This document shows, one piece after another, positions 3,001-6,000 of a DNA stretch of 64,000 bases (positions are counted from its first letter, which is position 1; every line of letters starts with the position of its first letter). The stretch comes from an uncultured Patescibacteria group bacterium (GTDB taxonomy: Bacteria > Patescibacteriota > Microgenomatia > UBA1400 > PJMF01). The DNA is taken from assembly GCA_905478415.1 (NCBI GenBank), contig CAJQIG010000002.1, positions 250,699 to 314,698 on the forward strand, written 5' to 3'. The position numbers are program-made.

Positions 3001-6000
3001 TTTGTTTCTTGAAGAACTGGGACTCAAAACCAGTGGCCTCGAGCGATTGATTGCCAAAGCGTTTGACCAGCTTGGTTTGCAAACGTATTTAACAGTGGGT
3101 GAGATTGAAGTTCGTGCCTGGACCATCACTAAAGGCATGACTGCTCCTGAAGCAGCCGGAGTGATTCACACCGATTTTCAGAAAAAATTCATTAAAGCCA
3201 AAGTCATTTCCTACCCAGACTTTATCGAGTTTGGCGGCTGGAAGGGCACTAAGGAAAAAGGCAAACAACGTCTTGAAGGCAAAGACTACGTAATGCGACC
3301 AGACGATGTGGTTGAGTTTATGGTTGGGGCGTAGCCAAAGAGTTTTTTTCAGCTTAATTTTTCAATAATTAATCCTATAATATATTTAGATCGAATAAGC
3401 CATCTATTCCGGCGTCTTTTTTAAGAGCCGGAGAGGAGAAAAAATTGTGGTGTTTCAAATTCCAGTATGGAGATTGAAAAGTGCGCAAGTTTGGGTTTTG
3501 ATTTTGCTAACGACAATGCTTCTGAGCGGGGTATTATATTCCTGCGACGGAGGCGGTGGCGGTGGCGGGCTGCCTGCCCCAGCAATGTTTGAGGGGTGGT
3601 AACCCAACCTACTAGGGAATGTCCGTTTGTGACATTCCCTTTTTTTTGGTTTGAGTCTTATTATGATGAGAAGGGTTTTATAAGGTTGCTTTCACAAAAG
3701 TGCCCCTCGATTTTTTTTCAGATCGGGGGGATTTTTTTGTAGAGATTAGTTTGTTATTATGGTTATATGGTCGAAGCTGCAAGAGGTGAAAAACCCAGTC
3801 CTAAGTCGAAAGATATTTTACAGAAAAAAGAGGTAACTCAATTGGCTGTTTCTTTTTTTAATGAGGATGCTGCTGACATTTTTGAAAAAGTTTCAAAATC
3901 TGGAGAAACGATTCATTGTAGGTGTCTGCTTTGGTTGAATCCTGAAGATCCTACAACGACTCCACTTCTGATTGTAAAGCCTGCGATTACCTTACAAAAT
4001 TACAATAATATTTTTTTAGAAAAAGGTTGGAAAGAAAGTCTAGATCCAGAAAAAAGTGCGGATAAAGTTTGGCACTCAGATATATACTGTTTTTGGAAAC
4101 GATTTTCAGAAGAAAACCCAGGTTCTGAGCGAGCAAAACTTTTTTCATCCGCTCTACAGTCTGGTGGCTATCCTGACCTTACTCATGGGTACTTTGACGT
4201 ATCACAGAACCAAGCGGGGGAGCTTGTTCTGAACCTGAACTCTGGTTGGTATGATCTGACTTACTCTACAGAGAGTACCTCCAAATTAGTTGTGAAGATG
4301 AATGACTATGGATTTGATGAAATAAACAGAGGCTTTATAGAAGGAAAAGTTAAGGTTGGAAAATTGATTCTGGAAGCTATGTTAGGACCAACGATCGAAG
4401 CAAATGCCCAAAAACTTTCACAAATAATCACTCCAAGAGCAGTGCGCCAGTACCGAAATTTGGCATTTCGATTTTTAACGAATGAAAAACCGAATACATC
4501 TTCCAAAGCATATCAAATTTTTAGGGAGTATCAGGAATTGTTAGAGTCATATGCTTGAAAAGCCCCCCCCTTTCCAGAAAGCTGAGGAAGTTACTCATGC
4601 AGGTGCGGACCATGAGCTTTCACCCCATTCTGAGTTAGCAAAACAAGCAATAGATTTTTTTGAAGCTGACGTGCAAAGAATTTTAACAGAGATCGAAGCT
4701 GGTGAAGCTCATTTTTTTGGTTCTACTGATCGAGTCACCGTGCGGTGTTTTATGTTGGTTAACCCAGAAAAGGCAGACGATGTGCCTATTTTCTTGACGC
4801 GTCCATCAATTGCTTTAAGCGCAACAGAGTTTAAAGATAACACTGGGCGAATGTACAACCTGGGTGAGTATATTGATAATACTATTCATAGCGAAATTTG
4901 GTATTACTGGGAGCAACTTATTCGAGAAGATCCTTCCTCAGAAAGAGCTGCATTTTTTCAGAAATTATTAATCAGTGGTGCAAAATATAAACGTATTGAG
5001 GGTATGTCTCAGGTATTGCTTCGCCAGAATAAGGAACCAGAGTTTAGACTCGAAAATGGTTATTTATTACTACAAAAATTTCCGCTAGAAGATATGAAAA
5101 GAAAAATTGCCCAGTTGGGTTTGTACGGTTTTACAGAAGTTAACAGGGGAGCGAGTAGTACCGAACGAGTTTCAGTTGAAAAATACATTCTTGAATATAT
5201 GCTCTCAGACACTATCGAAGCTTCAGCTCAAAAACTTGCGAAAATTGTTACTCCTCGGGCTGTGCGATTATATAAGAATTTAGCCTTTCGTTTTTTAGCT
5301 AACCCTGCTGCTAATACGTCGACGTCAGCATATGCACGTTTTTCAGAGTTTAACGAGTTACTCGAGAAGCTATAAGACTTTTTGGTTGAATGTACTTGAC
5401 AAATTGTTGTTTTTATCCTATAATATTATTAGTATTGTTTTATGTAGGTTCAAAAATTTTCAACTAATTAAAAAATGCTTTTAATTAGTTGGAGGAGAAA
5501 CTCATGAGCAAGTTTAACAACCTTTTTTTGTCAGTGGTAGTTAATGCAGAGTCGTTAACTCTTGTGGCATTCGGCGCGATGGTTTTTTTCCGCGTCATCT
5601 AAAGTAAAAATTGGTTTGTTAAAAGCCCTGGACAGAATGTCCGGGGCTTTTGCGTTTTCGTTGAAGAGTGATTCTCATAAATGATAAATGGCTTTTCATT
5701 TTATGACTCATCCTCAGGCGCGTAGAGTATCTCCAGTGTATAATCGATTTCAATCATATCAAGAGATGCTAGCCAAGTTATAACTAGTTCTTTTTAAGAA
5801 AAGATGATACAATCCACCTCTAGTATAAAGAATGTTTTGCTCGTTTCGCGTTCGCGAAATGCCAATCGCCTTAGGGCAAAACAGAAAGGGGCATAATGAA
5901 AATTCTCAAGGAAGAGCGCGTTCGTTCGTATGAACTCACGTTTGTAATTCCCGCATCCCTCACAACAGTTGACATTGCAGCGGCCAATACCGCAGTGTTA

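Follow-up and report, generated by a model that had tools for sequence, protein, structure and literature searches.

Does a run of eight cytosines in the first codons of a gene make that gene phase variable? The question is raised by two overlapping genes, ORF A and ORF B, in a 64-kb window (the whole stretch of DNA that was analysed, 64,000 nt), where the initial annotation had proposed that slippage at a C8 tract near the start of ORF B switches that gene on or off. The host is a near-clonal marine CPR population that is 'Pacebacteria'-like; in particular, the DnaB protein encoded in the window clusters at 90% identity or more with proteins named Candidatus Pacebacteria, Woesebacteria and Paceibacterota (NCBI), together with one labelled Pseudomonadales. 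The evidence presented below argues for a reading other than a switch, which we consider probable: the locus would be a unit of two genes coupled in translation, a lineage-specific duplicate whose paralogous products are soluble and cytoplasmic and in which the C8 tract is incidental.

Organization of the locus

ORF A and ORF B are the sole long ORFs between positions 3767 and 5375, and the coordinates and translations first assigned to them, to their overlap and to the proline codons of the C8 tract were all reproduced (Table 1). The pair is flanked by ychF and by rpsF-ssb-rpsR, where rpsF encodes ribosomal protein S6; its annotated neighbours (ychF, rpsF, ssb, rpsR and a ctpA-like protease) include no phage genes. 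Overlaps between adjacent genes are common across the 64-kb window. Two other candidate features were tried and rejected: the region downstream of ORF B (5376-5895) has no second copy within the window and is not a repeat there, and the release-factor gene at 9082..10047 simply begins at ATG 10047, without an RF2 programmed frameshift.

Table 1. Positions of the features discussed, numbered from the first nucleotide of the window.
Feature	Position	Strand	Description
Intrinsic-terminator-like hairpin 1	3614..3647	+	10-bp stem at 3614-3640, then T8
Intrinsic-terminator-like hairpin 2	3703..3737	+	11-bp stem (6 GC pairs) at 3703-3730, then T7
ORF A	3767..4558	+	263 aa, ATG start; member of an orphan alpha/beta-domain family
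ORF A/ORF B overlap	4551..4558	+	8 nt, ATGCTTGA; ORF B start inside ORF A end
ORF B	4551..5375	+	274 aa, ATG start; ORF A paralog, 36% identity
C8 homopolymer	4563..4570	+	CCC CCC CC; codons 5-7 of ORF B, PPP
Polymorphic site in ORF B	5241	+	A>T, codon 231 AAA -> TAA in contig L001

The hairpins with T-runs reported 5′ of the pair were recovered as two strong stem-loops followed by U-runs (z = -3.2 for positions 3600-3770). The ychF transcript, possibly with a small ORF in it, probably terminates at the first of them. Inside the pair, the + strand offers no terminator-like site other than a weak 5-bp stem at 4771. With two terminators upstream and no effective one inside, it is plausible that the pair is transcribed separately from the upstream genes, most likely as one bicistronic transcript of ORF A and ORF B that would start past both hairpins. 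Neither a Shine-Dalgarno sequence nor a clear promoter was recognised in the 30-36 nt between hairpin 2 and the ORF A ATG; the TATTAT at 3755-3760 would be compatible with a leaderless transcript that begins at A3767.

The ATG of ORF B (4551-4553) begins 5 nt before the TGA of ORF A (4556-4558) on the same strand, which is the start-in-stop arrangement by which translationally coupled bicistronic units are recognised. Translation of ORF B would accordingly be coupled to termination on ORF A through the ATGCTTGA overlap, and the coupling would yield the two proteins in similar amounts. The locus resembles known coupled pairs with ATGA or ATGnnTGA-type overlaps, whose products are subunits of one complex, in its same-strand 8-nt overlap, its lack of an internal terminator and the similar sizes of its paralogous products; it differs from them in that we infer both the coupling and the complex, and overlaps that are common in a compact genome need not imply a complex. 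That the two products work together as a hetero-oligomer is a tentative extension of the coupled-unit reading, and one that we hold with less than even confidence.

Paralogy and divergence of the two copies

ORF A and ORF B align with 36% identity over 248 aa (BLASTP, E = 6e-48), well above chance, and the paralogy claimed along their whole length stands; the near-identical C-terminal block is also real, reading TPRAVRxY[RK]NLAFRFL in both. Both proteins match the family HMM at full length over a domain of ~250 aa (306 bits for ORF A and 296 bits for ORF B), and in a 19-member alignment both retain the invariant F/H/W/Y/A columns (F37, H113, W120, Y192 and A245 in ORF B numbering) and the near-invariant D/P/P/R/I/L/Y.

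In the family tree, ORF A is the sister of a group formed by ORF B and its orthologue P0002 (61% identical to ORF B, on contig L002), so the duplication is older than the split between ORF B and P0002. Substitution patterns show that both copies are under purifying selection: dN/dS is ~0.3 between ORF A and ORF B, and likewise between P0006 and P0009, which form an independent tandem pair in another MAG (GCA_020049755.1), and ORF B differs from P0002 with a pN of 0.30 and a pS of 0.81. The tree position, the invariant residues kept in both copies and a non-synonymous divergence far below the synonymous one uphold the initial view that an old tandem duplication has been retained as a unit of two genes. 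The duplication is lineage-specific; an ancestral gene of ~250 aa would have been duplicated in tandem and both copies retained. The pair does not look like the split halves of an ordinary housekeeping gene, as the family is without known relatives.

The two copies have not diverged equally. ORF A retains the ancestral motifs His138 (THGYF) and SGW, and both are lost in ORF B; in ORF B and P0002, the His of 'H-x-Y-L' is replaced by Glu, and SGW by NGY or NAY. Further, ORF B is 27-31% identical to the remaining family members and ORF A 32-34%. This division of motifs looks like subfunctionalisation. On contig L002, which comes from a related organism, the ORF B-like gene lies upstream of rpsF and the A-like gene is not directly upstream of it, from which it follows that the need of ORF B for an adjacent A is not strict.

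These differences can also be read as independence, with paralogs that are separate or redundant and form no complex, an overlap that reflects genome compaction, and an ORF B that evolves faster and drifts toward a new function or loss. The frequent overlaps between neighbours in the window, the two motifs lost from ORF B and P0002, the lower identity of ORF B to the family, the unaccompanied B-like gene in L002 and a truncated ORF B allele in the population (described below) are all in keeping with it. However, ORF B remains under purifying selection relative to its orthologue, keeps every invariant family residue, and belongs to a family in which tandem retention arose twice independently; we regard independence as rather unlikely, and continue with the coupled unit as the preferred reading.

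A nonsense allele in the population

The sole variant of ORF B that was found is the A5241T nonsense mutation (protein P0001), which 2 contigs carry as their assembled consensus. One of these, L001, shows no other difference from the window across 5664 bp. With the allele at consensus level on both contigs, ORF B may not be an obligate partner of ORF A, but a dispensable or redundant copy. An apparent insertion hot spot at the ends of contigs L003 and L006, which diverge from the window just past the homologous SERAxxF motif, was rejected: at 0.75-1.1 kb and low coverage, these contigs probably end in chimeric sequence.

Stability of the C8 tract

If the locus were a contingency locus, slippage at C8 would toggle ORF B and create a mixed population of cells with A alone and cells with A and B. 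Poly-G/C tracts of at least 8 nt are mutable in Campylobacter, Neisseria and Haemophilus, and, like the homopolymer contingency loci of those genera, ORF B carries a G/C 8-mer in its first codons. Slippage there would be consequential, as is typical of phase-variable genes with a 5′ G/C tract of ~8 nt or more: a C7 tract is predicted to bring a stop after 28 codons and a C9 tract after 11 codons, so that a change of a single base truncates the product. The nonsense allele, moreover, shows that part of the population could do without an intact ORF B.

The tract itself, however, does not vary. All 13 other contigs that span the tract carry C8, as the window does (14/14 sequences, from several projects and samples), a count that rests on assembly consensus, where low-frequency C7 or C9 variants are invisible, and that is biased toward C8 by the retrieval of 10 of the 13 contigs through exact identity to the in-frame ORF B protein. 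The exact 274-aa, in-frame ORF B is present on 19-23 contigs and ORF A on 21; these 21 are accounted for by 19 with ORF B in frame and 2 with the nonsense allele, which leaves none for a frameshift, and no frameshifted ORF B gene call was found. The length heterogeneity that had been sought among related assemblies was therefore absent at the consensus level, and, with C8 invariant in every assembly examined, nothing suggests an on/off switch. The sole OFF allele that was seen arose by point mutation and not by slippage.

Comparative and statistical evidence points the same way. The C8 tract is absent from the orthologue P0002, and a 5′ G/C tract is absent from every other family member, so the tract is not kept in orthologues as those of phase-variable genes are. 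It sits in a disordered, unconserved N-terminal tail (pLDDT below 50 at residues 5-17 of the ORF B model). It is the sole G/C run of at least 8 nt in the 64-kb window, where a first-order Markov model of the window expects 0.32, and so lies near chance expectation; runs of at least 6 nt are otherwise scarce and, if anything, under-represented (4 seen and 8.1 expected), which makes the lone tract stand out without making such tracts enriched.

The products also look unlike those of typical phase-variable genes, which are surface or restriction-modification components. Neither ORF A nor ORF B encodes a signal peptide or a hydrophobic or transmembrane segment (maximum KD19 0.8), and their pI values are 5.6-5.8; with no hydrophobic segment and an acidic pI, both products look soluble and cytoplasmic. 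Literature searches found no report on phase variation in Patescibacteria and none that mentions the assembly accession. Weighing the fixed tract, the missing frameshift allele, the tractless orthologue, the disordered tail and the cytoplasmic-looking product, we judge a C8 phase switch for ORF B to be quite improbable; in the coupled unit that we prefer, the tract would be an incidental Pro-Pro-Pro stretch in a disordered tail and not a maintained contingency switch. The locus serves as a worked example of how weakly a lone 5′ homopolymer argues for phase variation: here the sole SNP in 5.6 kb is a nonsense allele, and the tract is invariant.

Predicted structures and candidate relatives

The AF2 model of ORF B (pLDDT 88.4, pTM 0.82) and the model of ORF A (pLDDT 86.7, pTM 0.78) share the same order of secondary structures, and the predicted domain is of the alpha/beta type, in which a long helix lies N-terminal, the beta-sheet core is small, and three helices make up the highly conserved C-terminal region. 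Foldseek searches with both models against the PDB, and with the ORF B model also against BFVD, gave best E-values of 0.2-0.5 and TM scores of at most 0.16. Weak matches to CE-clan (Ulp1/YopJ-like) enzymes recur for both models (ChlaDUB1, OtDUB, XopD, NopD and HopZ1a; E 0.66-2.7, TM at most 0.14); given these low scores, and with neither a conserved Cys nor a His-Asp-Cys triad in the family, this candidate was rejected. Matches to TipC-immunity and DUF600-like proteins were single and insignificant, and were likewise set aside. Searches of PDB sequences with a single sequence or with a 3-sequence profile returned noise only.

One sequence match was borderline. The 19-sequence profile of the family matches PDB chain 8vd8_B over ~70 residues (E = 5e-4, 22.8 bits), with an hhalign probability of 75% and a pairwise E of 2.5e-5, and the matched 8vd8_B fragment belongs to PF05135 (E = 5.5e-20), the family of gp6-like head-tail connectors. 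The C-terminal helices of ORF A and ORF B could by this match be homologous to those connectors, and the pair a phage structural module, either domesticated or left as a remnant. Yet none of the 19 members (0/19) matches the PF05135 HMM, and none a PHROG with a functional annotation, even at E<=1; no connector is among the best 50 PDB matches shown by Foldseek for either full model; and the similarity extends over no more than a short helical stretch, within a domain of 250 aa that is 2.5 times the size of a connector. As phage genes are missing from the neighbourhood and neither IMG/VR nor 50,697 phage records (tblastn) yielded a relative, a connector assignment was judged unsupported and a phage origin is extremely improbable.

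A bolder proposal starts from the models themselves: the pair may represent a new fold and family, in which the invariant His/Trp/Arg/Tyr would provide a new CPR-specific enzymatic or ligand-binding activity, and an active-like A and a diverged B would form a hetero-oligomer that perhaps lies close to the envelope-glycosylation machinery, on the inner side of the membrane. The placement at the membrane draws on hints from other members, namely amphipathic helices in several of them and the position of two beside GT2/PMT_2/GtrA genes. We consider this elaboration doubtful. As found, the locus is of minor significance, being another tandem pair of hypothetical proteins in an uncultured CPR bacterium with a phase switch that lacks support; as members of a very rare orphan family with confident models that match nothing solved, its products are a reasonable structural-genomics target within the CPR 'dark matter'.

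Distribution of the family

The family is a very rare orphan without recognisable relatives beyond itself. At E<=1e-3, it has 28 matches among 1.84 billion representative proteins, and a search of 5.8 billion clusters returned same-strain fragments and one orthologue, and nothing else. Two scans of 185,579 GTDB species genomes, limited by search patterns, confirmed no relative, and across the scans of GTDB, JGI metagenomes, IMG/VR and phages the sole return was one same-strain fragment, L007. Pfam, NCBIfam and PADLOC hold no family for ORF A, ORF B or any of the 19 aligned members, and among the PHROGs one weak match of unknown function, described below, is all that recurs. CPR genomes contain many families without homologues elsewhere, and the pair resembles such lineage-specific orphan families in its Pacebacteria-like host and its lack of a match in curated libraries; it differs from them in being unusually rare.

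Genes of conflict systems are typically found as tandem paralog arrays that are lineage-restricted, with presence/absence or null alleles, and the pair could belong to such a system, for example as immunity-type proteins of polymorphic toxins or as an unrecognised anti-phage or anti-host factor. The orphan family with its patchy distribution, its two independent tandem duplications, the variable genomic contexts of its members, a null allele that segregates, as the sole SNP in 5.6 kb, within a population that is clonal elsewhere, and the weak match of 4/19 members to one PHROG of unknown function (phrog_22590, best E 0.0014) are consistent with this. However, the contexts that were read contain no adjacent gene for a toxin, secretion, a mobile element or defence, PADLOC is negative for all members, the TipC-immunity and DUF600-like matches were insignificant, and the neighbourhood of the pair is a conserved one of housekeeping genes. 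A role in conflict is accordingly improbable, and the coupled pair of cytoplasmic paralogs remains our preferred reading.

The family is found almost only in metagenome-assembled CPR-type bacteria, and genomic contexts vary among its members. Two members other than ORF A and ORF B adjoin glycosylation clusters with GT2, PMT_2 and GtrA, and several carry FtsA-like or F/R-rich amphipathic helices. P0022, a distant branch whose 120-kb contig also carries Rieske, cupredoxin and NQR-like genes, may fall outside the CPR.

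Organization and expression of the gene pair

Sequence comparisons indicate that ORF A and ORF B are a lineage-specific tandem duplicate, probably translationally coupled by their overlap and belonging to a very rare, soluble orphan protein family in a marine CPR bacterium. The ORFs, overlap, homology, C8 run and upstream hairpins of the initial annotation are all present in the window sequence (see Table). In particular, the proteins are 36% identical across 248 aa (BLASTP, E=6e-48), a homology well above chance level, and are most strongly conserved in the C-terminal block TPRAVRxY[RK]NLAFRFL. 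The 8 nt overlap, ATGCTTGA, brings together an ATG and a TGA, an arrangement that would allow termination-reinitiation coupling; because gene overlaps are frequent across this compact genome, it is by itself no proof of an A-B complex. Plausibly, the two products act together, A having stayed close to the ancestral form and B having diverged.

Table. Coordinates of features in the window.
Feature	Coordinates	Description
ychF	2228..3334	flanks the pair, upstream side
51-aa ORF	3447-3602	downstream of ychF, stops shortly before terminator 1; lipoprotein-like signal
Stem-loop 1 + T8 (terminator 1)	3614-3640	upstream of the pair; folds strongly
Stem-loop 2 + T7 (terminator 2)	3703-3730	upstream of the pair; folds strongly
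ORF A	3767..4558	263 aa; same strand as ORF B
ORF B	4551..5375	274 aa; same strand as ORF A
C8 run	4563-4570	uninterrupted; codons 5-7 of ORF B (PPP)
Sigma-70 promoter	5396-5424	perfect consensus, TTGACA-17-TATAAT; starts the cassette; 1 of 2 in 64 kb
Inverted repeat	5461-5473 / 5479-5491	AT-rich, 13 bp; within the cassette, after the promoter
SD sequence	5491-5497	GGAGGAG, strong; within the cassette
32-aa ORF	ATG 5504..5602	hydrophobic, MSKFNNLFLSVVVNAESLTLVAFGAMVFFRVI; within the cassette
Cassette terminator	5620-5652	15-bp stem; closes the cassette
rpsF	5896..	flanks the pair, downstream side
Release-factor gene	9082-10047	- strand; 321 aa, short; PCRF-domain match only from model position 43 onward
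glmS ribozyme	10554-10756	upstream of glmS (10834..12648); Rfam RF00234, 56.5 bits

With two terminators upstream, the pair probably has its own transcript, as initially proposed. The 36 nt from terminator 2 to the start codon of ORF A contain no recognisable sigma-70-like promoter, and ORF A lacks a Shine-Dalgarno sequence; initiation directed by a TATTAT at 3755-3760 would fall on A3767 and yield a leaderless mRNA. Neither the A-B junction nor the stretch directly downstream of B shows a convincing terminator.

The window is bacterial chromosome. Downstream of rpsF lie ssb, rpsR, a CtpA-like S41 protease and a class-I release factor, followed farther on by glmS with its ribozyme, hisS, dnaB, glyA, gyrA and gyrB. 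The pair looks inserted into a conserved neighbourhood, because the order ychF-rpsF-ssb-rpsR matches that of Bacillus. The release-factor gene has an ordinary ATG start and no RF2-type programmed frameshift. Large ORFs at 41510-46138, 18334.., 19460.., 34119.. and 39780.., one of them 1542 aa long, drew no NCBIfam hit at E<=1e-10, as is typical of CPR 'dark' proteins. The DnaB encoded in the window groups at 90% identity with NCBI proteins named Candidatus Pacebacteria, Woesebacteria and Paceibacterota, plus one labelled Pseudomonadales, which places the host in the CPR/Patescibacteria. Many assemblies of marine metagenomes contain this locus at 99.94-100% identity, with a longest contig of 658 kb; the population is near-clonal and widespread.

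Duplication history

A neighbour-joining tree of the domain places A as sister to B and its orthologue P0002 (related locus L002), so the duplication is specific to this lineage and predates the split of the two organisms, in support of the tandem duplication put forward initially. The rest of the family is closer to A than to B. Two motifs kept in A are altered in both B and P0002, where the strand His of 'H-x-Y-L' becomes Glu and SGW becomes NGY/NAY. Selection on the pair is purifying (dN/dS ~0.3 for A versus B; pN 0.30 and a saturated pS of 0.81 for B versus P0002). The window contains no third family copy.

Where context is readable, family members are single-copy (L004, L005, L008, L010 and L013). 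The exception is P0006 and P0009 (453 and 370 aa), which lie 29 nt apart and are 68% identical over the domain (L014 8001-10504; NCBI MAG GCA_020049755.1, JAHZTO010000543.1). Both carry N-terminal F/R-rich and acidic segments, the acidic ones being repeats in P0006, and they are an independent, younger duplication. Further, an 80-aa ORF immediately upstream of P0011 (L008 7751-7993) weakly resembles the domain's N-terminal helix (E=4.5e-4) and may be what is left of a further duplication. The genomic context of the family is not conserved: GT2/PMT_2/GtrA/epimerase clusters adjoin two members, and the remainder lie among unrelated genes.

The C8 run and allelic variation of ORF B

A slip in the C8 run would end ORF B prematurely (C9, stop after 11 codons; C7, stop after 28), and the run had been proposed as a phase switch. 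The evidence argues against a maintained switch. C8 is found in the window and in 13 of 13 other covering contigs from several projects and samples, with no length difference across the 14 sequences; this constancy is at the consensus level, as assemblies hold only consensus sequence, and 10 of the 13 contigs were fetched by exact protein identity, a bias toward the in-frame state. Exact 263-aa ORF A occurs on 21 contigs, in-frame 274-aa ORF B on 19 (23 in a second look-up) and truncated ORF B, P0001, on 2, which leaves no contig of the 21 for a frameshifted allele. The run is not statistically unusual, with one G/C run of at least 8 in the window versus 0.32 predicted by its first-order Markov model. 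P0002 has a different N-terminus without the tract, and no other family member has a 5' G/C run. Moreover, the encoded residues fall within residues 5-17 of B, which are unconserved and predicted to be disordered (pLDDT <50), and the B product does not appear surface-exposed. C8 is most likely an incidental PPP-coding stretch.

Contig L001 (5664 bp), from another sample, differs from the window by one base, A5241T (L001 position 732), which changes ORF B codon 231 from AAA to a TAA stop, so that the 44 best-conserved residues are lost. Two contigs carry the truncated protein, and some of the population thus has an inactive B, owing to a point mutation rather than slippage. This null allele agrees with redundancy with A, with B being less needed or with fluctuating selection, and does not discriminate among the three. 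Two same-strain short contigs depart from the window just past the SERAxxF motif, L003 in B (past position 860, after window 4967) and L006 in A (positions 1-12 and past 451, after window 4144). Chimeric ends, in contigs of low coverage, are the probable cause, although the divergence begins at the homologous position in A and B.

An orphan family with confident models

ORF A and ORF B both lack matches in Pfam, PHROGs, NCBIfam and PADLOC. When 5.8 billion clusters were searched with a word index, only same-strain fragments and one B orthologue (P0002, 61% identity) came back; HMMER, run exhaustively with a profile against 1.84 billion representatives, gave 28 proteins at E<=1e-3, of which 12 reached E<=1e-30, and all share a domain of ~250 aa. 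Members reach 785 aa, and in the longer ones the domain is C-terminal, preceded by acidic repeats or helical extensions that match nothing. In the 19-member alignment (B numbering), F37, H113, W120, Y192 and A245 are invariant and D40, P79, P85, R132, I222, L229 and Y241 nearly so; A and B keep every one. The only recurrent match among the 19 across the same four databases is a PHROG without assigned function (4 members, best E 0.0014). No members were found in 185,579 GTDB species genomes by two pattern-limited scans, in IMG/VR by one scan, or in 50,697 phage records by tblastn.

AlphaFold2 models built with the 19-sequence alignment (pLDDT 88.4 and pTM 0.82 for B; 86.7 and 0.78 for A) have an identical element order: a disordered N-terminal tail, a long helix, a small helix-interleaved sheet and three C-terminal helices. 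No Foldseek match reached significance: in the PDB the best E was 0.22 for B and 0.53 for A, with TM<=0.16, and in BFVD it was 0.21. CE-clan enzymes recurred among the weak matches, yet a conserved Cys is lacking in the family. The lone borderline PDB match of the 19-sequence profile, the phage head-tail connector 8vd8_B (PF05135; E=5e-4, hhalign probability 75%), spans ~70 C-terminal residues. PF05135 matches no family member even at E<=1, no connector is among the Foldseek matches listed, and no phage context surrounds the pair; the similarity is an unconfirmed lead. The remaining value of the family is an orphan domain with confident models and no solved counterpart.

A and B are probably cytoplasmic, as both are acidic and have no hydrophobic segment. 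The C-terminal end of the family member P0005 (residues 308-363) consists of a long disordered linker and then a helix that resembles the membrane-targeting helix at the FtsA C-terminus (PF11983, E=2.9e-4, under the Pfam cut-off), and P0006, P0009 and P0010 have F/R-rich, amphipathic-looking N-termini. These features hint that some members are membrane-tethered.

Small elements flanking the pair

A compact cassette (5396-5652) lies between ORF B and rpsF. It may encode a small membrane peptide or something like a type-I toxin, or else an sRNA. L002 has a 118-nt spacer instead. On the other side of the pair, the lipoprotein-like signal of the 51-aa ORF (…LLSGVLYSC) is followed by a seven-Gly run (GGAGGCGGTGGCGGTGGCGGG).
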